From an uncultured Draconibacterium sp. (GTDB taxonomy: Bacteria; Bacteroidota; Bacteroidia; Bacteroidales; FEN-979), in contig CAZVNF010000001.1 in NCBI GenBank assembly GCA_964628215.1, positions 48,485-72,484 on the forward strand: a stretch of 24,000 nt of DNA, read 5' to 3'. The stretch's first letter is position 1; every line of letters begins with the position of its first letter. Positions 4,094-21,768 of this stretch are shown in pieces. The notes beneath the pieces were generated by a model, which saw nothing but the letters and a program-made list of their open reading frames with translations, had not been told where the DNA came from and searched no databases. A program made the translations under genes and the position numbers.

Positions 4094-4864
4094 ATGGATT
4101 ATCAAATACTGAAAATTTCGATCGCTGACCGCATCGCCCTCGTTACCATCAGCAGGCCGGCAGCACTGAATGCGCTGAATACAAACTTTTTCAAAGAGTT
4201 CAACCATTTCCTCGATGACCTCGGGCCGCGCGATGATGTAAAAGCCCTGGTAATCACAGGAGAAGGAAAATCCTTTGTGGCAGGCGCCGATATTGCTGAA
4301 ATGGTCCACATGAACGAAGAGGAAGGCTATGCGTTTTCCACCTTTGGCCAGCAAACCTTCGACCGGCTCGAACAGCTCTCCATTCCGGTAATTGCAGCAG
4401 TTAACGGGTATGCCCTCGGGGGTGGCTGTGAACTGGCGATGGCGTGTGATTTCAGAATCGCAAGCAAATTTGCCAAATTCGGACAACCCGAGATGAACCT
4501 GGGCATGATTCCGGGGTATGCGGCAACCCAGCGTTTATCCAGGCTTACCGGACTTGGCAATGCATTGTACCTGATCCTCACTGCTGATACCATAACCGCC
4601 GACGATGCCCTCCGCATCGGCCTGGTTCAAAAAGTCACGGAACCCGAAATGCTGATGGAAGAAGCGATGAAACTGGCTGCGAAAATGGCCTCCAACGGCT
4701 CGCAGGCGGTTGCCACTTCAAAAAGAGTGATCCGTGCGGGAATTGCCATGGATTTTGCAGAGGCTTCGAAACTCGAAGCCGTCGAATTCGGCAGGCAATT
4801 TAACAGCAAAGCCACCAAAGAAGGGATGACCGCATTTCTCGAAAAACGCAAACCATCCTGGTAA
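4094..4864 (+). CDS. Enoyl-CoA hydratase / crotonase-family (short-chain, 3-hydroxybutyryl-CoA dehydratase-like)
   Basis: 256 aa. The N-terminus ALVTISRPAALNALN...ALVITGEGKSFVAGADIAEM and the core AAVNGYALGGGCELAMACDFRIA form the canonical crotonase-fold oxyanion-hole pattern. Confidence 0.9.
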   Translation: MDYQILKISIADRIALVTISRPAALNALNTNFFKEFNHFLDDLGPRDDVKALVITGEGKSFVAGADIAEMVHMNEEEGYAFSTFGQQTFDRLEQLSIPVIAAVNGYALGGGCELAMACDFRIASKFAKFGQPEMNLGMIPGYAATQRLSRLTGLGNALYLILTADTITADDALRIGLVQKVTEPEMLMEEAMKLAAKMASNGSQAVATSKRVIRAGIAMDFAEASKLEAVEFGRQFNSKATKEGMTAFLEKRKPSW

Positions 4865-4937
4865 CTTTAGCACTTTAGCAATGCATTTTGCGATTTGAAC
4901 TTTTTTAGGTAGAAAATAAACCCAAATTATCAACAAT

Positions 4938-6272
4938 ATGTCCTACGAAGAACGATTACAGCACGTTTCCGTGCTGGGCGCTGCAGGAAAAATGGGGAGC
5001 GGCATCCTGCTGCTTACCGCTGTGGAGATGGCTGACATCAGCCTGAAGCCCGAGAATAAAGGCAAACCTTTCGTCCTGAATGCCATCGATGTTTCTGACG
5101 AGGCCCTGTCCGGGGTTATGAAATATCTGAAGGCCCAGGTGTTGAAAATGGCAGAGAAAAAAGTGGTGGCCTTGCGAAAAGTATATGCAGATCATGCGAA
5201 CCTGATCGACAACGATGAGATCATCGATCAGTATATCTTTGATGTAATCAGCCTGGTCAGAACCACCACACGGATTGAGTCGGCCTATGATTCGCACATG
5301 GTATTCGAAGCCATCAAGGAAGATCCTGCGCTGAAAATCAAACTCTTTTCACAAATTTCCACTAACAACCCGCATCAACCCTGGTTTTTCACCAATACCT
5401 CCTCCATTCCCATCACCAAGCTGGATGAGGGCGCAGGGCTGAATGGCCGCATCATCGGGTTCCATTTCTATAACCCTCCTGCCGTACAGAAGCTGGTTGA
5501 GATCATCAATGCAGCAAAAACCCTTCCCGAGGTGGAAGCTTTTGCCCGGCAATATGCAAAAAACCTGCGAAAGGTGGTTGTTCCTTCACATGATAAGGCG
5601 GGTTTCATCGGCAACGGACATTTCATGCGCGATATTCTGCATGCAAACAACGAAGTGGATAAACTGAGTAAGGAATTTTCGTTTACTGAGGCTGTTTATG
5701 CCCTCAATAAAATCAGCCAGGATTACCTGGTTCGCCCAATGGGGATATTCCAGCTTATCGATTATGTTGGCGTGGATGTGTGCAGTTTCATCATGTCGGT
5801 AATGAATCCTTACCTGCCGGATGAGAACCTTCACAGCCCGCTGCTGGACCAGCTTCTGTCGCATGGCATCAAAGGAGGGCAATATTCCGACGGGTCGCAG
5901 AAGGATGGTATTCTGAAATATGAAAAAGGACGGCCTGTGGCCATTTATGATCCTGCCTTAAAAGCCTACCGGGCCATCAGCGAAGTTCAGTCAGGCGTTG
6001 ATGAAAAACTTGGTTCAATGCCTGTGCCGCCGGCCTGGAAATCAGTGGTGGGCAGCAAGTCGAAAGAAACGATGCTTCAAGGCTACTTCGACCAGTTAAA
6101 ACTTGCGTCAGGATTGGGCGCTGAGTTATCAAAAACCTATGCAACACGCTCCTGTGCAATTGGCCTTCAACTGGTCAGTTCCGGGGTAGCCATGAACGAA
6201 AATGACGTTAACACGGTCATGCTCACCGGGTTCTTTCACGCATATGGTCCCATTAACAATTATTTAGCATAG
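4938..6272 (+). CDS. 3-hydroxyacyl-CoA dehydrogenase family protein, long form (444 aa) with extended C-terminal region
   Basis: VSVLGAAGKMGSGI is a Rossmann GxGxxG-type motif. MVFEAIKEDPALKIKLF and IGFHFYNPPAVQKLVEII match the 3HCDH N-domain signature. Confidence 0.85.
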   Translation: MSYEERLQHVSVLGAAGKMGSGILLLTAVEMADISLKPENKGKPFVLNAIDVSDEALSGVMKYLKAQVLKMAEKKVVALRKVYADHANLIDNDEIIDQYIFDVISLVRTTTRIESAYDSHMVFEAIKEDPALKIKLFSQISTNNPHQPWFFTNTSSIPITKLDEGAGLNGRIIGFHFYNPPAVQKLVEIINAAKTLPEVEAFARQYAKNLRKVVVPSHDKAGFIGNGHFMRDILHANNEVDKLSKEFSFTEAVYALNKISQDYLVRPMGIFQLIDYVGVDVCSFIMSVMNPYLPDENLHSPLLDQLLSHGIKGGQYSDGSQKDGILKYEKGRPVAIYDPALKAYRAISEVQSGVDEKLGSMPVPPAWKSVVGSKSKETMLQGYFDQLKLASGLGAELSKTYATRSCAIGLQLVSSGVAMNENDVNTVMLTGFFHAYGPINNYLA

Positions 6273-6286
6273 ACCCTGCCCTGGCT

Positions 6287-6306
6287 CCCGCCCCTTCAGG
6301 GGAGGG
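6287..6306 (+). other. Short GC-rich hairpin in the 53-nt spacer between the dehydrogenase and thiolase genes, followed by a G-rich tract
   Basis: The sequence ccc g cccc ttca gggg a ggg gives 7 bp with one g/a mismatch and a 4-nt loop. The downstream tract gtaaggggtgaggtgaaaaaATG is purine-rich and SD-like. Confidence 0.4.
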
Positions 6307-6325
6307 TAAGGGGTGAGGTGAAAAA

Positions 6326-7567
6326 ATGACGACTATGAGAAGAAAAGTATATATGATTGCCGGGTACAACACCATTTCAATGGGTACCGGCCGGAAGGAG
6401 TTCAACCCGAAAAAAGAACGTCCGGGATTAGAAGAATATATCAAAGAAGCCGGGCAGGGAACCCTGGCCCAAATCGGCGGGGCAACGAACGTGGACGAAT
6501 GCGTGATCGGCAATTTTATGGCATCCCGGTTTAACCGCCAGGCAAACCTTGCCGCCTTTTTCCCGTTTGTGGATGAGGGGTTGCGCTACAAACCCGCCAT
6601 CAGGGTTGAAGGAGCCTGTGCCACCGGCGGACTGGCCCTGATGAGCGGTATCAAAAGCATCCTGGCCGAAACAGCTGAAGTAGTTTTAGTGATTGGTGTG
6701 GAAGTGCAAAACACGGTGAAAGCAATTTATTGCGCCGACTTTCTTGCCGGTGCAGGCTGGTTCAAGAACCGTAAAAACGGTCATGCCTATTTTTTCCCCG
6801 GACAGTTCAGCGACCGTGCCGGTTCCTATTTTGAAAAATATGGCAGGGAAAAGACCCGCCAGGCAATGGCACGCTGGTTCAGGAATGCCATCGACAATGC
6901 ACGGCTCTGCCCCACTGCGCAGGAACATCAGAATACTGTAAAGGATCTTGAAGCCCTGGGCATGATGGAGCCGAACGGCAAATCATTTGTTGACCATCTG
7001 AATATCTTCGATTGTTCCAAGGTCTCCGATGGCGCTTCTGCCATTGCGATAGTTTCCGAAGAGGGACTGAAGCGTTGCGGCATCCCTGCCAGCGAAGCCA
7101 TAGAAGTACTCGGCTGGGGCCAGCTGGAAGAGGATATTACCATGCCTCCGATGGATCCGACCGAATTGACTACCACCAAGCAAGCCGTAAAACAAGCCCT
7201 TGCTTCTGCCGGGATCACCCGCGACCAGATTGGTACTGCAGAGATACACGACTGCTTCTCCATTGCCGGACTGATGTGCATGGAAGCCATCGGTTTTGCT
7301 GAAAAAGGCAAAGGCGCTGATTTCATCCTCGAAGGAAATACCGCCCGAAACGGAAGGGTACCTATCAATACCACAGGCGGCCTGATCGGCTGGGGCCATC
7401 CCACAGGAGGCACCGGCGTTCACCAGGCTGTAACCATCCTTGAACAACTCACCGGAAAAGCAGGCGACGCCCAGGTAACCATCCCTGCCGACCGGCCTTA
7501 CGGACTTACCGTGAATATGGGAGGGGACGATAAATCGCTGGTATCTATCGTTTATAAAAAAGGATAA
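6326..7567 (+). CDS. Thiolase-fold enzyme, SCP-x / archaeal-type 3-ketoacyl-CoA thiolase (acetyl-CoA acyltransferase)
   Basis: 413 aa. RVEGACATGGLAL carries the nucleophilic Cys. EIHDCFSIAGLM is the HDCF motif typical of SCP-x-type thiolases, and TTGGLIGWGHPTGGTGV is the C-terminal GHP motif. Confidence 0.85.
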   Translation: MTTMRRKVYMIAGYNTISMGTGRKEFNPKKERPGLEEYIKEAGQGTLAQIGGATNVDECVIGNFMASRFNRQANLAAFFPFVDEGLRYKPAIRVEGACATGGLALMSGIKSILAETAEVVLVIGVEVQNTVKAIYCADFLAGAGWFKNRKNGHAYFFPGQFSDRAGSYFEKYGREKTRQAMARWFRNAIDNARLCPTAQEHQNTVKDLEALGMMEPNGKSFVDHLNIFDCSKVSDGASAIAIVSEEGLKRCGIPASEAIEVLGWGQLEEDITMPPMDPTELTTTKQAVKQALASAGITRDQIGTAEIHDCFSIAGLMCMEAIGFAEKGKGADFILEGNTARNGRVPINTTGGLIGWGHPTGGTGVHQAVTILEQLTGKAGDAQVTIPADRPYGLTVNMGGDDKSLVSIVYKKG

Positions 7568-7602
7568 TACATTCTATTTGCACATTGCATGTCAAATTGC
7601 AA

Positions 7603-14926: not shown

Positions 14927-15307
14927 ATGATTTTAAAAAAGGCGCATACCCTCCTTATAGCATTGAGTGAATCAGTTCCTCATACAGAAATGATCAACTC
15001 GCTGCGCACCAGCGAGTATAATCTTCTTGAATCAAAAACAGGCGGGGAAATTCTTCAAACACTTTGCGAACATTCAGAGATTGATCTGATCATGATAACC
15101 GTTGATATTTCAGGAATGGATGGAATTGAAACCATTCTGGCAATAAGAAAACAGTATATAAAAATACCGATCATCCTGCTTTTAAATCATGTAACCATTG
15201 AATCAGTGCGACTCGCTCAAAACATCGGTTGTAATGAGATCATACAAGCTCCGGTTGATCATAAAACCCTAGAAGCAATCATCCTGAAATATCTTCCAAT
15301 TCCATAA
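14927..15307 (+). CDS. Stand-alone receiver-fold protein with degenerate phosphorylation site (pseudo-receiver)
   Basis: The (beta-alpha)5 receiver pattern is recognisable (DLIMITVDISGMDGIETILAIRK...IPIILLLNHV...CNEIIQAPV). A by-eye alignment to CheY puts A/L at D12/D13, T at D57 (an Asp sits 2 residues later), L/N at T87 and A at K109. Confidence 0.65.
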   Translation: MILKKAHTLLIALSESVPHTEMINSLRTSEYNLLESKTGGEILQTLCEHSEIDLIMITVDISGMDGIETILAIRKQYIKIPIILLLNHVTIESVRLAQNIGCNEIIQAPVDHKTLEAIILKYLPIP

Positions 15308-15326
15308 TACTTTATAACCATATTCC

Positions 15327-16148
15327 ATGAAACTCCCATTTTTAACAAAATCATTACGCTGTCTGGCTTTCGGTCTCATTTTCTTTTATACGCCGGTCAT
15401 CGCCCAAAACGAAAAGGCAGCCTCCGACATGTCAGAGCTCGCCAAGCAATCGCAAAACCCTGTGGCAAACATGTATCAGTTGCCTGTCAGTTACTTAGGG
15501 GATTTTAATTCCGGGGTGACTAAAACCTACATTTCAACGGTTATGTTAAAACCAGTTATCCCGATTACACTCTCCAAAAGTCTGTTATTTATTTTCAGGG
15601 CCATTATCCCGGTTACTTTCATGCCTTCACCAATTAATAAAACCGGATTAAGCGACATCCAGTTACAGTTTTATTTATCGCCTACCGGCAAATCAAAATT
15701 TATCTGGGGGATAGGCCCGATCGTTTCATTGCCTACAGGAGTTCCACCTGATATGTGTTCAGGGAAATGGACAGCAGGACCGGGAGGGGCAGGATTGTGG
15801 ATGTTAAAACATTGGGTAATAGGAGCGCTCATAACCCAGCGGTGGTCGTTTGCGGGCGCAAGTGATAAGTCGGACATTAGTCAATTGTACATTGATGCCT
15901 TCGCCAATTACAATTTCAAACACGGTTGGGCTTTGGGCTATACACCTGAAATCTATGTAAACTGGAACCAACCTGACGATGCATGGAATCTGCCGGTAGG
16001 CCTGAATGTTTCAAAAGTCTTCAAGATCGGGAAACAGCCGCTTTCTGCCAATCTTGCCTACTTCTACAATGTCGTTCGACCCGACGATTACCCTGATATG
16101 TATATCAAAGCGGGATTGACTTTCCTGTTTCCGAAAAAGGCAAAATAA
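15327..16148 (+). CDS. Outer-membrane beta-barrel protein, 'transporter'/MetA-pathway-of-phenol-degradation-like family (hydrophobic compound channel type)
   Basis: The signal peptide is MKLPFLTKSLRCLAFGLIFFYTPVIAQ. LAKQSQNPVANMYQLPV, the MLKPVIPI pattern, GLSDIQLQFYLSP, WGIGPIVSLPTG...GKWTAGPG and the C-terminal LTFLFP match my recollection of this barrel family. The sequence shows alternating beta-strand periodicity. Confidence 0.5.
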   Translation: MKLPFLTKSLRCLAFGLIFFYTPVIAQNEKAASDMSELAKQSQNPVANMYQLPVSYLGDFNSGVTKTYISTVMLKPVIPITLSKSLLFIFRAIIPVTFMPSPINKTGLSDIQLQFYLSPTGKSKFIWGIGPIVSLPTGVPPDMCSGKWTAGPGGAGLWMLKHWVIGALITQRWSFAGASDKSDISQLYIDAFANYNFKHGWALGYTPEIYVNWNQPDDAWNLPVGLNVSKVFKIGKQPLSANLAYFYNVVRPDDYPDMYIKAGLTFLFPKKAK

Positions 16149-16175
16149 TTTATTCATTTCTAAATCCAGACACAT

Positions 16176-17054
16176 ATGAAACACATTGAAATACAAGATA
16201 ATGAATGGTCTCCGAATGCTAACCTTTCAGTAATGACCAAAACCGACAAGCTCTGCATCGGAGCGTTCTTGTTTTTTTTATTGGTCTTCTTTTATATGTT
16301 TTGCCGGGAATTTCTTTCTCCGGTACTTGCACTTCCGGTTCTTCCCGGAGGGTCTTACGGTAAAATGTTACCCCCTGTTATGTTTGCCCTCCTTTACCTT
16401 ATTTATACCCGTGGATATAAAAGTACTCTATCCATGTTACTTTTTATTTGGGTTTATGGCTGGATAGCAGAAGAACTGAGTGTCCATACCGGTTTCCCAT
16501 ACGGGCATTACTATTACTCGGATGCGCTTGGCTATAAACTTGATGTAGTACCAATTACAATAGGAATCAATTACCTGTGGCTCTTTATATTTCCTGCATT
16601 TTTTATCTCCAACCTCCTCGCCCAGGGAAGTTTTCTATTCATGGGTAAAGGTATAAAAGGACTGCTATTCACCTCCCTGGTTGCAAGTATTGTCATTTCA
16701 GGCATTGATATGGTGGCTGACCCGCTGGATGCAACCAAAATGTCGGAATGGGTATGGACAAAGAACGCCTATACCGGTTATTATGGCATTCCTTACATGA
16801 ATTACCTGGGCTATGTCATTGTGATGACCCCGGCATTTTTTATTTATGGCCTTATTCAAAGGAAATTCAAAGCAAAACCCATTGGTCCCGTAAATATCTG
16901 GATCGCTTTTATTCCTCTGTTTTTCTATTTTCTCATCTTTCTCATGTACGGAGCACCGGCTCCCAGCGGAGTATTCCTGGTCGGTTGCTTTACAATGGTT
17001 TTTCCGCTGATCCTTTCAATAGATAAATTATTGAAGCAGTTCTCAACGAAATAA
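16176..17054 (+). CDS. Polytopic membrane protein, carotenoid biosynthesis protein (DUF422 / CruF carotenoid 1',2'-hydratase) family-like
   Basis: 292 aa with about 7 hydrophobic helices. The motif AEELSVHTGFPYGHYYYSDALGYKLDVVPITIGINYLWLF resembles the TGFPFGxYxY...lG.kl.gvP core I recall for DUF422/CruF. Confidence 0.5.
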   Translation: MKHIEIQDNEWSPNANLSVMTKTDKLCIGAFLFFLLVFFYMFCREFLSPVLALPVLPGGSYGKMLPPVMFALLYLIYTRGYKSTLSMLLFIWVYGWIAEELSVHTGFPYGHYYYSDALGYKLDVVPITIGINYLWLFIFPAFFISNLLAQGSFLFMGKGIKGLLFTSLVASIVISGIDMVADPLDATKMSEWVWTKNAYTGYYGIPYMNYLGYVIVMTPAFFIYGLIQRKFKAKPIGPVNIWIAFIPLFFYFLIFLMYGAPAPSGVFLVGCFTMVFPLILSIDKLLKQFSTK

Positions 17055-17066
17055 AAAAACAGATCT

Positions 17067-17999
17067 ATGGCATTTTTTAAGAGATTTACGGTATTCTTGG
17101 TTCTCCTGCTGTTTTGTCACCAGGTCATTCAGGCACAATATGGAAGAATTTACTCGAATGTTCCCCGTAATGATAATTATTTCCAGTTGCATTATTACAA
17201 TACGATCTCAAATTCATGGGCCGAACAAACCATACCGGCTGATAAAAACCAAAGCATCACCAACCTGGGAAGTTTATCATACACACGGGTCATGAATATT
17301 TTCGGACGTACCGGCGGTCCTGGTATCGTTATCCCATATTCAAGCATGCTGAGTTTCAACGAGGAAACAGATACCATCACATACCGGGGCAGTGGCTTCG
17401 GTGATCCATCTTTCACCTTCGACTGCAATATATTTGGAGCACCATCCTTGAGGAAAACGGATTTTGACCATCATGTCCCTGCCACTTATATGAGCGCCCA
17501 TTATGTGATGAGTTTTCCGTTTGGTAGTTATAACAGCAGCAAGACAACCAATATCGGCTCAAACAGGTACACCTGCAAATTTGTACTTAACTACAGCATC
17601 ACCACGATGAAAGGGAAAAACTGGATTGATATGTATGCCAATGTTAAATTATCCGGTAAAAACAATAGTTACCTGGGAGATAAGACATTAAGCCAATCTC
17701 CGATTTATGGTTTTGAGATCCATTACAGTCAGGATATTCTTGAAAAATTACTCGGTAAGGGCTGCTGGTTCAACATTGGTGCCATCTACAGTGGTGGAGG
17801 AAAGGTCACGGTGGATGGCGTTACAGGAAATGATCAGCATTCTGTTAAAGGATGTGGGGCAGTTTCATTTCCAACCTGGAAACATGGTTCCATCATCGTC
17901 AGTTACAATGGCTCAGTGTGGGGAACCAATGGCTCACCAGTGACACATCAGTTGATTGTACAAATCAATTGCCCGTTTGTTTGTAAATCACAACAATAA
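17067..17999 (+). CDS. Second outer-membrane beta-barrel-like exported protein (Phenol_MetA_deg-like)
   Basis: The signal peptide is MAFFKRFTVFLVLLLFCHQVIQAQ. The protein is beta-rich with alternating polarity. GSGFGDPSFTFDCNIFGAP and NIGSNRYTCKFVLNYS resemble the G-x-GD and N-x-G-x-N-R motifs of that family. Confidence 0.4.
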   Translation: MAFFKRFTVFLVLLLFCHQVIQAQYGRIYSNVPRNDNYFQLHYYNTISNSWAEQTIPADKNQSITNLGSLSYTRVMNIFGRTGGPGIVIPYSSMLSFNEETDTITYRGSGFGDPSFTFDCNIFGAPSLRKTDFDHHVPATYMSAHYVMSFPFGSYNSSKTTNIGSNRYTCKFVLNYSITTMKGKNWIDMYANVKLSGKNNSYLGDKTLSQSPIYGFEIHYSQDILEKLLGKGCWFNIGAIYSGGGKVTVDGVTGNDQHSVKGCGAVSFPTWKHGSIIVSYNGSVWGTNGSPVTHQLIVQINCPFVCKSQQ

Positions 18000-18010
18000 A
18001 AAAAATCCAT

Positions 18011-19708
18011 ATGGTAACATTTAAGTTAATAAGTAATTGCGCAATAGCAATTTACTTTATTTCCGGAATGTTTTGGTCCGATACATCCATCGCCCAAAAT
18101 AATAAACCGGCAAAACCAGCATTAGCAATTAACCCCGATTCGTATGTTTCGGCATCCAAGGAAGAGTGGGGTCAGTTAATGTGGGATTTTAAACTCTTCA
18201 ATCAGCCCCTGGATGAATTTGCAAATTTTGATGAACCCAATGATGCCGGTCTGGCAGCAAACCGTTTTATTGATAATTATGCGGCATACTTTATTGCAGC
18301 TGAACAATACCACAAGTTTCCGGCATGGTCGGAAGCCATTCAACCTGTTTTGGACAGGGTAAATATGAAATTGCTCGAGAAATTTTTGTGGAAATATTGG
18401 TCGGACGAAAGCATTGGTATTCCCAAATTTCAGCCCGATATGGATCAGACATTCCCTGCAACTGCCGACCCTGTCGGGTTTGCCAATATTATGTATTCGG
18501 GACATTTGTTATTCCAGATGAATCTTTATCAGTCGCTTTACCGCGACATGAAATGGGATAAACCGGGGTCGGTTGTGTTAAAATGGGATGATTACACACA
18601 ATTTGTTTACGATAACAAGAAAATACAAGAGTTGATCACCATGCAATTTCTCAGCAATCCTGTTCCGGGAGTAGAATGTGAACGTAACGCTGTTTTCTCG
18701 GCCTGTAATCAGTTCCCTTTAAATGGGATGAAACTTTATGATGAAATGCATGGCACCCGTTATTTTGCTGCCGTTGCGCCATTGTATAAAAAATGGTTCG
18801 AAGATGTTTTTGTAGATCCTCAAACCTATAATATTGCCTGGTTTTATTTAATCAAACAAAAAATTGCCTTTTCCGAAAAGACGCCATATTATGGCAACAA
18901 GTCAGATTCATTGGAAAAGCAATTGGTTAACAAGGGGGTTGATTTTATCTCGGCAGGTAATGATGGTGCTGTTGGTACTTTTATGCATGCCTGGAACCCG
19001 GAACTGATCGAAAAAATATATCCTGCTTTAAAGAAAAAAGTCTTTTCCGTTGATGCAACCGGCCTGGCAAAATTGCACCAGGATGTATTTATCCAGGACG
19101 CTACCTATTCATATTTTACCTGCCTGGTAGCCGAAATGGGCGATGAACCAACAAAACAATTGCTGATACAAACAATGGACAGTATTTACCAGGGAGTTTG
19201 GCTGGATGGCACATACCATTATGCCTACAACGAAAATGCTGCGGGATTAAGTGTTGGATCGCCCGATGCAGCAAAGAAAACCGGAACAGCGATCAAGCCA
19301 AAGTGTTGTGAATCGCCGATGAAAAAAATGCAGGCGCCTCAATCAGATGTTTCCAACCAGGTGATTGGTCTTGCACGGGCATTGCCTAAAAACGGAATGT
19401 GGATGATGGTGAATAAACCCTTTGATGATTTACACTTTACCGAACCGGCATTAAGCGGAGTTGATGTTAAGAGTGTAATGATGAAAAGAGCCATCTACGA
19501 CAGAACTCAGAAAGCGCTTATTGTTTCAACATTTTCAAATAAAACAGGGGTAGAAACAACCATTAAAGTGATCAAGCTGAATCCTGCAAAAACGTATAAC
19601 ATATTTATCAACCAGGAATTTCATAAAGAAGTTAAAGGCATAACAGAAGAGGATATTAAAATGGACAGCAAAAAGAACTATGACATTGTCGTTGTAGAAA
19701 AATATTAA
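18011..19708 (+). CDS. Exported linalool dehydratase/isomerase (Ldi)-like protein with an extra C-terminal beta-rich domain
   Basis: The signal peptide ends ...SDTSIAQ. ANIMYSGHLLFQMNLYQSLY compares with the recalled Castellaniella Ldi ENIMYKGHLNLMYGLYQL. VECERNAVFSACNQFPLNGMKLYDEMHGTRYF compares with [31 protein letters not shown]. The Cys-x8-Cys pair (codons 18677 and 18704) and the GHL His (18503) are conserved. The protein is 565 aa versus about 400 aa for Ldi. Confidence 0.6.
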   Translation: MVTFKLISNCAIAIYFISGMFWSDTSIAQNNKPAKPALAINPDSYVSASKEEWGQLMWDFKLFNQPLDEFANFDEPNDAGLAANRFIDNYAAYFIAAEQYHKFPAWSEAIQPVLDRVNMKLLEKFLWKYWSDESIGIPKFQPDMDQTFPATADPVGFANIMYSGHLLFQMNLYQSLYRDMKWDKPGSVVLKWDDYTQFVYDNKKIQELITMQFLSNPVPGVECERNAVFSACNQFPLNGMKLYDEMHGTRYFAAVAPLYKKWFEDVFVDPQTYNIAWFYLIKQKIAFSEKTPYYGNKSDSLEKQLVNKGVDFISAGNDGAVGTFMHAWNPELIEKIYPALKKKVFSVDATGLAKLHQDVFIQDATYSYFTCLVAEMGDEPTKQLLIQTMDSIYQGVWLDGTYHYAYNENAAGLSVGSPDAAKKTGTAIKPKCCESPMKKMQAPQSDVSNQVIGLARALPKNGMWMMVNKPFDDLHFTEPALSGVDVKSVMMKRAIYDRTQKALIVSTFSNKTGVETTIKVIKLNPAKTYNIFINQEFHKEVKGITEEDIKMDSKKNYDIVVVEKY

Positions 19709-19732
19709 CTCATTAACCTAAATAAATATTTT

Positions 19733-21034
19733 ATGAAAAAACTAATCATCACTTTCTATTTACTGGCCTCCATTGGCATGTTGTTCAACACGGGCTGTTC
19801 ATCCCAGCCAAAAATCACCAAATTGGAAGCCACCCAAAAACTGGCAGAACTTAAAATGAAATACGATATCGCAAACACCCAGTGGTACGATATCTATACG
19901 CAAGGCTTGATCCCGGGTGCCGAAGAGGCTGGTAAGCTGATTTCACAGGCACAGAATGCGGTGGATTCGGGGGAGATGAAAAAGGCTGAAGAGTTGATCA
20001 TTCAGGCCGATACGTTGCTGAAAACCTACACCATGGCCAACCTTCCCGATTACAGTCCTCCCACTCCGCTGGCCGATCCTGCCGATCATGGCAAGGTTCA
20101 TAAGGCAACCCTCCAGGATCTCAGGGCCATGGAGTTCTATGGCGTTCCAAGATGGAATTACTGGTTCAATTTTGTGGGTAAGGCCGATGACGGAACCCTT
20201 TACATGGCTTATGCCTACATCAACCACCATGGTACGGGAAAGATAACTCCGCCCATCGTGTTTGCCATGAGCACGAGCAAGGATCCGTCCAACATTCTGA
20301 AGGTGAAATTCACCGCTGAACCCACCCTGAAAGACACCAAAGATTCGCGGATCTGGATTGTGAAAGACGGTGATAAAACCTTAACCTACACCCTGACAGA
20401 TGGCAAAGTGGGGATTAAATACGAATCAAAAGACCTTACAGTTGATGTGGCTTCGGTGATGCAATACTCTTTCTGGTATAACAAAAACGTGAACTCCGCC
20501 GAGATGATGCCGGGAGCCCCCATGGCGGGATTCGAAGAGACTGGCGCCGCTGAGGGTTACTTCCTTGTAAATGGGCTGAAGATCGTGGTTAAAGGCTTTG
20601 GAGAATCTGAGAACCTCTTCTGCGGTGGCAAGGGGGTTGACTATCGCAGTGCACTGATCAAGTACGGTAATGAATGGTGGGTGCCATTCCATACCGACCA
20701 GGCCCAGGGACTCATCTGTATGACAGGAAAATACAAGGATGCAGGACTTTTCCTCAATGGGAAATATGTGGTACCATCATCGGTTGAAGTTGTGCCGATC
20801 GAGGCAAACAAATCCTTTAAACTGAACATGAAAACTTCGGAAGGGGATCTGAACCTGATCATCACATGCTGGGGTTGGGACCCTCCCCTTTATGAACATT
20901 GGGCGACCTGCGAAGGAACTTTCAAAGAACAGAACCTGACCAACGGCTATGCCTGGCTGGAACATATCCCACAAGGCGGGGTCAATGCAAGCCCACCGGT
21001 GGGAGGAAGACAAGGAATTCCTGAAAAACAATAA
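19733..21034 (+). CDS. SPII lipoprotein: N-terminal helical region plus beta-rich domain, possibly CrtC/AttH-like (carotenoid 1,2-hydratase lipocalin-like fold)
   Basis: The lipobox is MLFNTGC|SS. DPADHGKVHKATLQDLRAMEFYGVPRWNYWFNFVGKADDGTLYMAYAYI loosely resembles the P-x-DHG-x-H...EWWY...G...DG opening of CrtC/AttH proteins. The assignment is weak. Confidence 0.3.
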   Translation: MKKLIITFYLLASIGMLFNTGCSSQPKITKLEATQKLAELKMKYDIANTQWYDIYTQGLIPGAEEAGKLISQAQNAVDSGEMKKAEELIIQADTLLKTYTMANLPDYSPPTPLADPADHGKVHKATLQDLRAMEFYGVPRWNYWFNFVGKADDGTLYMAYAYINHHGTGKITPPIVFAMSTSKDPSNILKVKFTAEPTLKDTKDSRIWIVKDGDKTLTYTLTDGKVGIKYESKDLTVDVASVMQYSFWYNKNVNSAEMMPGAPMAGFEETGAAEGYFLVNGLKIVVKGFGESENLFCGGKGVDYRSALIKYGNEWWVPFHTDQAQGLICMTGKYKDAGLFLNGKYVVPSSVEVVPIEANKSFKLNMKTSEGDLNLIITCWGWDPPLYEHWATCEGTFKEQNLTNGYAWLEHIPQGGVNASPPVGGRQGIPEKQ

Positions 21035-21075
21035 ATGAATCACTAAATCAGTAATTAATACTAAACCAATATCTT

Positions 21076-21768
21076 ATGAAAACAGCAAAAATTTATTTCG
21101 GTCTTCTGGCAGTCGTGGCTGCCTTTGTAATCACTTCGTGCGGTTCGCCGGTCACAATGACCAGTTGGAAGAACCCGGCAGACAATTCAAAAATCTCGAA
21201 AGTTATGATAATGCCCTTATTCGACAAACTAGATTACATTAAACCATTTGAACAGTCGATGGATGCCTATTTAACTGCACAGGGGATGAAGGTGCTAGGG
21301 TCACTTGATATACTGAATCCAAATGTCAAATACGCGATTTCCGAAATCAAAAAGAAGTGCGACAGTCTGGGCGCTGATGCAATTTTGATATTCGTTTACA
21401 AAGGCACCGATAAATCAGAAAGTTACGTTCCTCCCACTACTTACACAACCGGTGGGTTTGGTGGCAACTGGGGTGGCGGATACTGGGGCGGTGGTTATTG
21501 GGGTGGCGGCTACGGCGGCGGTATTTATGGGGGAAGCGGCTTCGACGACGTCAGTACCGTAACGACTGGAGGCTACTGGACAACCACCTCCGTGGTAAAC
21601 CTGAAAGCAAGTCTCTACACCAAGTCTGCGACGGATGCCGTATGGACCAGTGATATTACGGTAACCGACCCGAATTATGTGGACCAGTGTGCTACAACAA
21701 TCGCAAAGGACATATATGCAGATTGGCAGAAAAATAATCTTTTGAAATATCCATCGGTAAAAAAATAA
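21076..21768 (+). CDS. SPII lipoprotein, DUF4136-like, with an internal Gly/Trp/Tyr repeat
   Basis: The lipobox is FVITSC|GS. The internal repeat is GGFGGNWGGGYWGGGYWGGGYGGGIYGGSGF. The overall size and the layout of conserved flanks around a Gly-rich insert resemble DUF4136 lipoproteins. Confidence 0.4.
   Translation: MKTAKIYFGLLAVVAAFVITSCGSPVTMTSWKNPADNSKISKVMIMPLFDKLDYIKPFEQSMDAYLTAQGMKVLGSLDILNPNVKYAISEIKKKCDSLGADAILIFVYKGTDKSESYVPPTTYTTGGFGGNWGGGYWGGGYWGGGYGGGIYGGSGFDDVSTVTTGGYWTTTSVVNLKASLYTKSATDAVWTSDITVTDPNYVDQCATTIAKDIYADWQKNNLLKYPSVKK
21469..21528 (+). repeat. In-frame 15-nt tandem repeat encoding (W)GGGY units
   Basis: The units are tggggtggcggatac (21469-83), tggggcggtggttat (21484-98), tggggtggcggctac (21499-513) and ggcggcggtatttat (21514-28). 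Confidence 0.85.

Follow-up and report, generated by a model that had tools for sequence, protein, structure and literature searches.

We analyzed a 24,000-nucleotide stretch of DNA from an uncultured Draconibacterium sp. (GenBank assembly GCA_964628215.1, contig CAZVNF010000001.1; this whole stretch is called the window below) and identified in it a complete gene, at 18011-19708 on the plus strand, for a 565-aa protein that is a genuine (α/α)6-barrel member of the linalool dehydratase/isomerase (Ldi) superfamily. It belongs to a new, large, and phylogenetically broad subfamily, here called the long form, that has the complete catalytic core of Ldi and appears to close the active site differently. 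Also new, and in our view the most interesting result of this work, is the genomic tie of long-form genes to an unannotated protein family with a kievitone hydratase (KHS)/CrtC-type fold and, sometimes, to CruF-like proteins. Judged by residue conservation, the protein is very probably an active enzyme of the superfamily. We favor, with some reserve, the reading that it is a periplasmic, cofactor-free (de)hydratase/isomerase that acts on imported isoprenoid-type substrates in an oxygen-independent route of anaerobic freshwater Bacteroidota, and that it is not an orthologue of Ldi; for the isoprenoid nature of the substrate taken by itself, we consider the chances to be evenly balanced.

Membership in the superfamily was evident from both sequence and fold. 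The reference enzyme, Ldi or LinD of Castellaniella defragrans (EC 4.2.1.127; PDB 5G1U, 5HLR, 5I3T), belongs to the same Pfam family (PF18566), has the same (α/α)6 barrel, and can be aligned over its whole chain. The Pfam Ldi profile matched our query with 208.5 bits (cut-off 26.1; E=2.3e-61) over profile positions 5-317 of 318, and a profile built from 118 relatives matched Ldi in the PDB with E=2.2e-36. In a global profile-profile alignment of the long form with the shorter relatives of Ldi, made with hhalign, query residues 13-481 aligned to Ldi residues 1-372 (probability 100, E=1e-67, 360 aligned columns). The AlphaFold 2 (AF2) model obtained from the 118-sequence alignment had a mean predicted local distance difference test score (pLDDT) of 90.6 and a predicted template modeling score (pTM) of 0.90. 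When this model was compared with the PDB using Foldseek, ranks 1-27 were all Ldi chains (E~1e-14), with template modeling (TM) scores of 0.76-0.82 normalized to Ldi. A similarity limited to short blocks, as suggested by a single-query phmmer search against PDB sequences in which the match covered residues 152-272 only (E~7e-8), was rejected by these profile and fold comparisons.

The gene had been singled out in an earlier reading of the DNA letters (the original prediction), which placed the start of an Ldi-like protein at 18470; this position is residue 154, and the interval given corresponds to the 3' three-quarters of the open reading frame (ORF) 18011-19708. All the peptides quoted there, including NIMYSGH, CERNAVFSACN, KPKCCESPMKK, and the β-rich tail, were located in this ORF, and the Ldi blocks cited for comparison proved correct, the 5G1U chain A sequence being confirmed at 100% identity over residues 1-372. 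Two checks had been proposed, one for full-length rather than block-only similarity and the other for an (α/α)6 barrel plus a β-sandwich in a predicted structure. Both were run: the similarity is full length and far above chance by the PF18566 and hhalign values given above, and the AF2 model contains the barrel, which superposes on Ldi, as well as the sandwich. The gene and its parts are as follows.

18011-19708, plus strand: complete long-form Ldi-family gene, 565 aa (ORF list, Pfam PF18566, AF2 model, Foldseek).
18011-18097, plus strand: probable Sec signal peptide, residues 1-29, with K5, a hydrophobic stretch, and SIA-QN cleavage (sequence reading).
18128-19453, plus strand: catalytic (α/α)6 barrel, residues ~40-481, corresponding to Ldi in its entirety (hhalign, Foldseek).
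18485-18505, plus strand: N-I-M-Y-S-G-H block, with M161 and H165 equivalent to Ldi M125 and H129 (alignments, translation).
18677-18709, plus strand: C-E-x7-C-N block, with C223, E224, C232, and N233 equivalent to Ldi C171, E172, C180, and N181 (alignments, translation).
19229-19336, plus strand: variable insertion or linker, residues 407-442, with KPKCCESPMKK; a gap in Ldi (hhalign, translation).
19304-19309, plus strand: vicinal C432-C433 of the linker (translation).
19454-19705, plus strand: appended Fn3-like β-sandwich module, residues 482-565 (AF2 model, family alignment, module profile).

Residues 1-30 are modeled with a pLDDT below 51 and are poorly conserved and gappy across the family. 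Because this N-terminus resembles a Sec export signal, as in Ldi (PMC6013536), we infer that the protein is exported and acts in the periplasm.

We compared residue conservation in two sets of sequences, a long-form alignment of 118 sequences and a short-form set of 82, made up of Ldi and 81 relatives of at least 340 aa. The short-form relatives came from a search seeded with Ldi, which returned 86 proteins of 231-491 aa; those of at least 340 aa span 348-491 aa, with a median of 419. The core of PF18566, consisting of N-I-M-Y-x-G-H, C-E-x7-C-N, Y-D, and E-x-G-D, is complete in the query (M161, Y162, H165, C223, E224, C232, N233, D244, E375, and D378), and it is invariant or at least 99% conserved in the 118 long-form and 82 short-form sequences. 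Within the long form, M161, Y162, S163, C223, E224, C232, D244, E375, G377, and Y404 are invariant (118/118), and H165 is found in 117 of 118. Within the short form, M125, H129, C171, C180, N181, D192, E306, and D309 are present in 82/82 sequences and Y126 and E172 in 81/82; all ten of these residues are common to Ldi and the query. Ldi Y335 is shared as well, its counterpart being Y404 in the long form, and is a Tyr in 76 of the 82 short-form members.

The original prediction had drawn attention to a Cys pair and a His, with the same C-x8-C spacing as in Ldi, and the alignments agree: M125, H129, C171, and C180 of Ldi align to M161, H165, C223, and C232. We use PDB numbering for Ldi, which is that of the cited papers plus one. 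In the papers' numbering, C170 and C179 are essential and catalytic in Ldi (PMC6600392), and H128, Y44, D38, C179, and C170 have been named as its key residues (PMC12455561). That the retained residues argue for an active enzyme rather than a scaffold is supported, at the level of sequence, by the invariance of the Cys pair and the Met and by the near-invariance of H165. The further suggestion that they point to an Ldi-like specificity was not borne out, as they are invariant in the 118 long-form and 82 short-form relatives. Being present superfamily-wide, the retained Cys and His do not discriminate for a linalool dehydratase; as far as conservation can tell, the Cys-x8-Cys/His signature is a mark of the whole superfamily and has no bearing on linalool specificity.

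Other published essentials of the Ldi active site lack an evident counterpart in the query. In Ldi, the C49-C102 disulfide (C48-C101 in PMC6600392) is essential and caps the active site (PMC6600392). We found no counterpart of it: C102 aligns to E123, and C49 aligns to A71 with MAFFT or to D68 with hhalign. The query contains no Cys at residues 11-222, and the mature protein is without Cys before C223. Y45 (Y44 in PMC12455561) falls in a deletion by both the MAFFT and hhalign mappings, although an aromatic residue from another part of the chain may take its structural place. The mapping of D39, which in Ldi comes from the adjacent subunit, differs by method, being E69 with MAFFT (family consensus D, 108/118) and K61 with hhalign, and the region was left unaligned by HMMER. 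Among the 82 short-form sequences, both disulfide cysteines are found in 20, all of which are at least 66% identical to Ldi, Y45 in 23, and D39 in 26; most short-form homologues (348-491 aa) thus share the core with the query and likewise lack the C49-C102 disulfide and Y45. From these alignments, we conclude that the disulfide and Y45 are features of a narrow Ldi clade, and that the published active-site residues split into a universal core and a clade-specific shell. This division provides a rational map for the mining and engineering of such enzymes. Because the cap and Y45 are replaced in the query by other N-terminal elements, by insertions, and by an Fn3-like sandwich, its substrate and oligomeric state probably differ from those of Ldi.

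At 565 aa, the protein exceeds the 397-aa Ldi precursor by 168 aa, in agreement with the ~165 aa originally estimated. Relative to Ldi, hhalign placed four insertions inside the barrel domain, at residues 137-151, 184-199, 286-308, and 407-442 (15, 16, 23, and 36 aa, respectively), the second of which forms a β-hairpin in the AF2 model. The C-terminal helices of Ldi (residues ~337-372) correspond to query residues 443-481, and the barrel thus ends at ~481. Residues 482-565, ~84 aa in all, are the sole appended part, and the rest of the excess consists of the internal insertions. The original prediction had described a linker with vicinal cysteines. These cysteines are present in the sequence, but they lie in the 407-442 insertion, which is modeled with low confidence (pLDDT 52-55) and varies in the family from 8 to 87 aa. 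The vicinal CC was considered as a conserved functional motif of the family and rejected, since it occurs in only 62 of the 118 long-form members and within a length-variable loop; a lid or redox role of the CC loop within a subclade is possible.

The C-terminal module is composed of seven strands (490-497, 502-508, 515-521, 528-533, 536-542, 547-552, and 557-563; DSSP) with a pLDDT of 93-98, and it is kept in 116 of the 118 relatives, including Penicillium and Aspergillus proteins at 25-27% identity. Its single Pfam match, to PF24942 (Fn3_Dep-1_1st), was below threshold (16.8 bits against a cut-off of 26; E=0.007). A profile of the module returned 185 matches among 1.84 billion representative proteins. 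Full-length matches were confined to the very C-terminal end, either of 530-770-aa proteins (both of those scanned were Ldi-positive) or of fragments; partial matches to the module core occurred as 3-16 repeats per giant protein, and the four of these that were scanned are arrays of Pfam fn3 domains. We conclude that the module is a divergent Fn3-like sandwich and that its sequence family, for which there is no Pfam model, is private to long-form Ldi proteins. In the model, the conserved start of the module (D485, R493, A494, and D497), together with the high pTM, suggests a fixed packing against the barrel. The C-terminal β-rich domain was therefore correctly recognized in the original prediction but is not novel, given its Fn3-like character and its retention across relatives, and is half the size that had been implied. 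Three fungal proteins of 526-569 aa and 25-27% identity (P0115, P0116, and P0117, from Penicillium, Aspergillus, and, for P0117, the JGI collection) have the long-form architecture with the tail. Because fungal proteins share this architecture, the Fn3-like tail predates, or has crossed, the divide between bacteria and fungi.

A genome scan with one genome per species gave 147 encoding stretches, from which 80 loci were kept; the neighborhood counts below refer to these 80. Long-form loci occur in Bacteroidota, Ignavibacteria, Victivallales, Verrucomicrobiota, Geobacter/Desulfobacterota, Acidobacteriota, Negativicutes, Elusimicrobia, Myxococcota, and Desulfomonilia. The source genomes of the kept loci are mostly metagenome-assembled genomes (MAGs) of anaerobe-rich lineages from stratified lakes, and the closest genome matches to the query are Bacteroidota/Bacteroidales MAGs at 86-93% identity. 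The long form is also found, at 26-30% identity, in the cultured aerobes Sphingomonas colocasiae JCM 31229, Sphingomonas sp. Root720, Sphingobium phenoxybenzoativorans SC_3, and Pseudorhodoferax sp. Leaf274. Single MAGs may hold two to four divergent long-form loci, as in CAIWTA01 (L008, L017, and L036), CAXXDQ01 (L049, L050, L051, and L056), CAIKNA01 (L015 and L016), and JBAXKG01 (L007 and L035), which suggests substrate diversification within one organism. Short-form relatives were found in Denitromonas, Porticoccaceae, Binatia, Oligoflexus, Chloroflexi, Leptospirales, Arenicella, and others. The two forms are separate sequence clusters: searches seeded with each gave non-overlapping sets, and none of the 86 short-form matches is of long-form length, so that they cannot hold all the insertions plus the 84-aa tail.

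In terms of sequence relationships, Ldi has effectively formed a family of one enzyme (PMC6013536), the Thauera isomerase being its only sequence relative known at the time of a 2018 review (PMC6013536). That enzyme, the membrane-bound linalool isomerase of Thauera linaloolentis (PMC6013536), is the one characterized protein among the short-form homologues. Our literature search for PF18566 or long-form homologues found no paper in the library that was searched, which fits the earlier statement that Ldi homologues outside Betaproteobacteria are functionally uncharacterized; to this we add that relatives are widespread there in both short and long forms.

In the window, the Ldi-like gene is part of a block of seven co-directional genes at 14897-21768, separated by gaps of 11-41 nt. 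From this intergenic spacing, we regard the block as a probable operon whose genes would be co-transcribed; scans for sigma-70 promoters and terminators, models unsuited to Bacteroidota, gave counts equal to those in shuffled sequences. The genes surrounding the Ldi-like gene are as follows.

12727-14682, plus strand: TPR and LuxR/GerE protein, putative regulator, 214 nt upstream of the response regulator (Pfam/NCBIfam).
14897-15307, plus strand: receiver-only response regulator (Pfam/NCBIfam).
15327-16148, plus strand: secreted 273-aa protein of a family without match, in 21/80 loci and usually directly upstream of the Ldi-like gene.
16176-17054, plus strand: CruF-like membrane protein (Caroten_synth; PF04240, E=2.4e-22).
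17067-17999, plus strand: MetA-type outer-membrane channel for hydrophobic compounds (PF13557, E=4.4e-9).
19733-21034, plus strand: 433-aa lipoprotein with a kievitone-hydratase/AttH (CrtC-like) fold (AF2, Foldseek).
21076-21768, plus strand: Gly/Tyr/Trp-rich lipoprotein of 230 aa, last gene of the packed block (sequence; 15/80 loci).

The 433-aa lipoprotein encoded immediately downstream is the commonest neighbor of Ldi-like genes, being present in 30 of the 80 loci and in about eight phyla. The pairing spans Bacteroidota, Ignavibacteria, Desulfobacterota/Geobacter, Negativicutes, Elusimicrobia, Verrucomicrobiota, Bacteriovoracaceae, and Syntrophorhabdaceae. The lipoprotein has no sequence match in Pfam (including CrtC), NCBIfam, or the PDB, and its family comprises 84 proteins, all unannotated and none with a Pfam domain. 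Its AF2 model (pLDDT 91.5) was matched by Foldseek to kievitone hydratase (7A0T), AttH (2ICH), and the pericyclases Fsa2, Phm7, and CghA (E~1e-9, probability 1.00); against 7a0t and 2ich, the values were E~1.6e-9 and TM 0.41-0.52. The lipid-anchored or secreted 433-aa protein thus shares the double β-barrel fold of KHS, AttH, and CrtC, and differs from them in an extra N-terminal helical hairpin, a TM score of only ~0.5, and the lack of a sequence match. Of the known structures, that of AttH comes nearest to the carotenoid 1,2-hydratase CrtC (PMC4717167). Within the family of the lipoprotein, N-E-W-W is found at 313-316, E314-W315-W316 and D336 are invariant, Y334 is nearly so, and many Trp, Tyr, Glu, and Asp residues are invariant as well. 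The pattern Y334-x-D336 recalls Y266-x-D268 of CrtC, whose catalytic residues are H239, W241, Y266, and D268 (PMC4717167).

Tandem paralogues of the KHS-fold protein follow the Ldi-like gene in two other loci, three in L055 (9705-14951), where a HAD-family hydrolase lies among them, and two in L039 (10514-13235); they are 31-59% identical to the window copy. In L031, from a Verrucomicrobiota MAG (6159-14187), the pair of Ldi-like and KHS-fold genes has as neighbors genes for an SBF (bile-acid/Na+ symporter family) transporter and a CdhC-like protein. The same locus holds a BcrAD/BadFG-type activator ATPase and two HGD-D (2-hydroxyacyl-CoA dehydratase/benzoyl-CoA reductase-type) subunits of an HgdAB-type radical enzyme, a context that hints at a link to anaerobic radical chemistry.

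The remaining genes of the block accompany Ldi-like genes less often. Besides the 433-aa protein with its 30 loci, tblastn searches over the 80 loci detected the 273-aa protein in 21 of them, the 230-aa lipoprotein in 15, the two regulators in 11-12, the MetA-type channel in 5, and the CruF-like protein in 4. The 273-aa protein has many invariant Pro, Trp, and Gly residues and no match in Pfam, NCBIfam, or the PDB, and its comparison with the MetA-type channel by hhalign showed no relationship. The 230-aa lipoprotein, without match in Pfam or NCBIfam, contains a Gly/Tyr/Trp low-complexity tract (GGFGGNWGGGYWGGGYWGGGYGGGIYGG). It is present in 15 related Bacteroidota loci, with an identity of 72-86% in 14 of them and of 53% in L020.

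The CruF-like gene passes the Pfam threshold for PF04240 (80.4 bits against 25) and encodes a polytopic membrane protein similar in size to CruF. Unlike CruF, it scores far below the equivalog cut-offs of the NCBIfam CruF models TIGR03460, NF041333, and NF045693 (E~1e-12 to 1e-14; 46-52 bits against 155-400) and has no carotenoid biosynthesis genes nearby. In the window, the CruF-like/MetA pair is inserted directly before the Ldi-like gene, after the gene that is usually found upstream. Such a pair also stands beside Ldi-like genes in four loci of four phyla (L019, L023, L031, and L055; Ignavibacteria, Acidobacteria, Verrucomicrobiota, and Bacteroidales). Two further metagenome contigs encode an identical Ldi-like protein, with the genes again in the order CruF-MetA-Ldi-lipoprotein, and an 89%-identical orthologue (L081) is without the adjacent pair. 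Because the pair is missing beside so close an orthologue, we regard it as an accessory insertion.

Cofactor-free hydratases that make tertiary or allylic alcohols from unactivated alkenes are rare and valued in biocatalysis, and to our knowledge, few enzymes are known for anaerobic attack on isoprenoid alkenes. KHS, Ldi, CrtC, and CruF have been grouped as hydratases that need no cofactor and attack non-activated, isoprenoid-type C=C bonds (PMC6013536); each of them acts on prenyl or isoprenoid termini and yields tertiary alcohols. On the basis of this grouping, the operon combines relatives of three of those hydratase scaffolds (KHS and CrtC being one fold) with channels for hydrophobic compounds. 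Since the Ldi-like gene is apparently co-transcribed with genes for a KHS/CrtC-fold lipoprotein, a CruF-like hydratase, and a channel for hydrophobic molecules, periplasmic action on an imported isoprenoid is its most likely role.

For export, activity, substrate class, and physiological role, we therefore propose the following model. A hydrophobic substrate would be imported via the outer-membrane channel; it would carry prenyl or terminal isopropylidene C=C bonds or be a matching tertiary allylic alcohol. In the barrel, a reduced C223/C232 pair, with H165, M161, E224, and N233, would carry out acid/base or thio-adduct chemistry of the Ldi type, and by analogy with Ldi this acid/base chemistry is probably cofactor-free. 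The alkene/tertiary-alcohol pair would be protonated or deprotonated via a carbocation-like or thio-adduct intermediate, resulting in (de)hydration and/or allylic isomerization. The pocket would be closed by elements other than the Ldi disulfide cap, and the oligomer may be different. The KHS-fold lipoprotein and the CruF-like protein could act on the same or related molecules, the role of the system being oxygen-independent conversion or detoxification. If such a joint action on isoprenoids in anoxic waters is true, the block would offer a testable genetic handle on the oxygen-free attack of isoprenoid alkenes. A bolder version of this model, which we consider doubtful, is that the block from the response regulator to the 230-aa lipoprotein is an unrecognized, oxygen-independent envelope system of anaerobes that activates or remodels isoprenoid hydrocarbons solely by adding or removing water, with three unrelated hydratase scaffolds, import channels, and paralogous loci that, much like polysaccharide utilization loci, are each adapted to other substrates. 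Candidate substrates of such a system would be squalene, carotenoid or phytol-derived chains, and prenylated plant phenolics.

Several observations weigh against the proposed periplasmic isoprenoid (de)hydratase/isomerase. CruF and CrtC are normally biosynthetic enzymes, and the KHS/AttH fold also houses pericyclases (Diels-Alderases) that are not hydratases. No substrate-specific gene that would name the compound was found among the genes in the window, and homologues in Victivallales, Myxococcota, Desulfomonilia, and Sphingomonadaceae occur without the partner genes. The query is only 16-22% identical to Ldi, and it has F86 in place of Ldi Y66, at a position that is Tyr in 81/82 short-form and 103/118 long-form sequences. 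Two more N-terminal positions that are nearly invariant differ as well, with E69 for the usual D and V46 for the usual P. Finally, Ldi is a cyclic homopentamer with its active site at an interface between subunits, and this site requires a neighboring subunit as well as the disulfide cap (for the latter, PMC6600392).

We considered four other explanations. The query could be a true linalool dehydratase/isomerase orthologue that converts myrcene, linalool, and geraniol at the start of monoterpene breakdown by anaerobes, its Fn3 tail being a neutral addition. The catalytic Cys pair, His, Met, Glu, and Asn, the fold, and the likely periplasmic signal are all as in Ldi (PMC6013536), which moreover takes many α-methylallyl alcohols (PMC6013536, PMC12455561). 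These shared residues, however, are superfamily-wide, whereas C49-C102 and Y45, which characterize the clade of at least 66% identity to Ldi, are missing. The query further differs from Ldi in its F86, its four insertions, its N-terminal region, and its 84-aa Fn3-like tail. Its neighborhood is also unlike that of Ldi: the host is an anaerobic Bacteroidota, monoterpene-oxidation genes are lacking, the operon has no gene of the geraniol/geranial dehydrogenase type, and the conserved partners are instead hydratase-fold proteins. Orthology with Ldi is thus quite improbable. Somewhat better, though still unlikely, is a biosynthetic block in which the three hydratase-type proteins add tertiary hydroxyls to an endogenous isoprenoid or carotenoid-like envelope lipid. 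CruF and CrtC are classic carotenoid-tailoring enzymes (PMC6013536), several products of the block are lipoproteins or membrane proteins, and the block is conserved as a unit. On the other hand, neither the window nor the additional genes inspected in L039, L055, and L031 yielded a phytoene synthase, desaturase, prenyltransferase, or cyclase, and import-type outer-membrane channels with dedicated regulators fit an inducible uptake. The several paralogous loci per MAG, too, resemble substrate-diversified utilization loci, and the CruF-like/MetA pair is optional.

A barrel followed by a β-sandwich is also the layout of GH127-type hydrolases, in which the nucleophile is a cysteine, and the (α/α)6 barrel is shared by GH76-type hydrolases. 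A carbohydrate-active enzyme mis-filed under Ldi would therefore account for the secondary Foldseek matches to GH127, GH76, and other glycosidases (ranks 29-50) and for the Fn3-like tail, which recalls glycoside hydrolase architectures, as presumably does the vicinal CC. These matches are weak (TM 0.25-0.4 with GH127 and no higher than 0.65 with GH76; E 1e-6 to 1e-4) compared with those to Ldi (E~1e-14, TM ~0.8). In addition, there is no CAZy-type Pfam match, the motifs specific to Ldi are invariant whereas the CC lacks conservation, and the block has no SusC/SusD or glycan genes, which together make a glycosidase very improbable. We consider it extremely improbable that the protein has kept only the ancestral fold and serves as a non-catalytic binder or chaperone for hydrophobic ligands. 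Such a loss of activity could be suspected from the missing Ldi cap and from F86, which replaces a near-universal Tyr. More than 10 polar or catalytic residues, however, are strictly invariant in 118 sequences from at least 10 phyla plus fungi, and F86 is a tolerated variant, found in 13 long-form members that include the closest relatives of the query and a whole Victivallales group.

Beyond the block, the window contains type IX secretion system (T9SS) sorting domains, consistent with a Bacteroidota origin. The G+C content falls from ~0.51 (2-10 kb) to ~0.40 (12-20 kb), with a boundary at ~10000-12700 that possibly marks the limit of a segment gained by horizontal transfer. A truncated DUF4143 fragment, matching profile positions 48-160 only, lies at this boundary (11977-12441). 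Upstream of it, at 4094-8553 on the plus strand, is a β-oxidation-like set of genes for an enoyl-CoA hydratase, a 3-hydroxyacyl-CoA dehydrogenase, a thiolase-like protein, and an NMO/FabK-like flavoenzyme. This set is located ~10 kb upstream of the hydratase block, with oppositely oriented genes for a CdhD-like protein, a low-molecular-weight phosphatase, and a TolC-like OEP protein in between.

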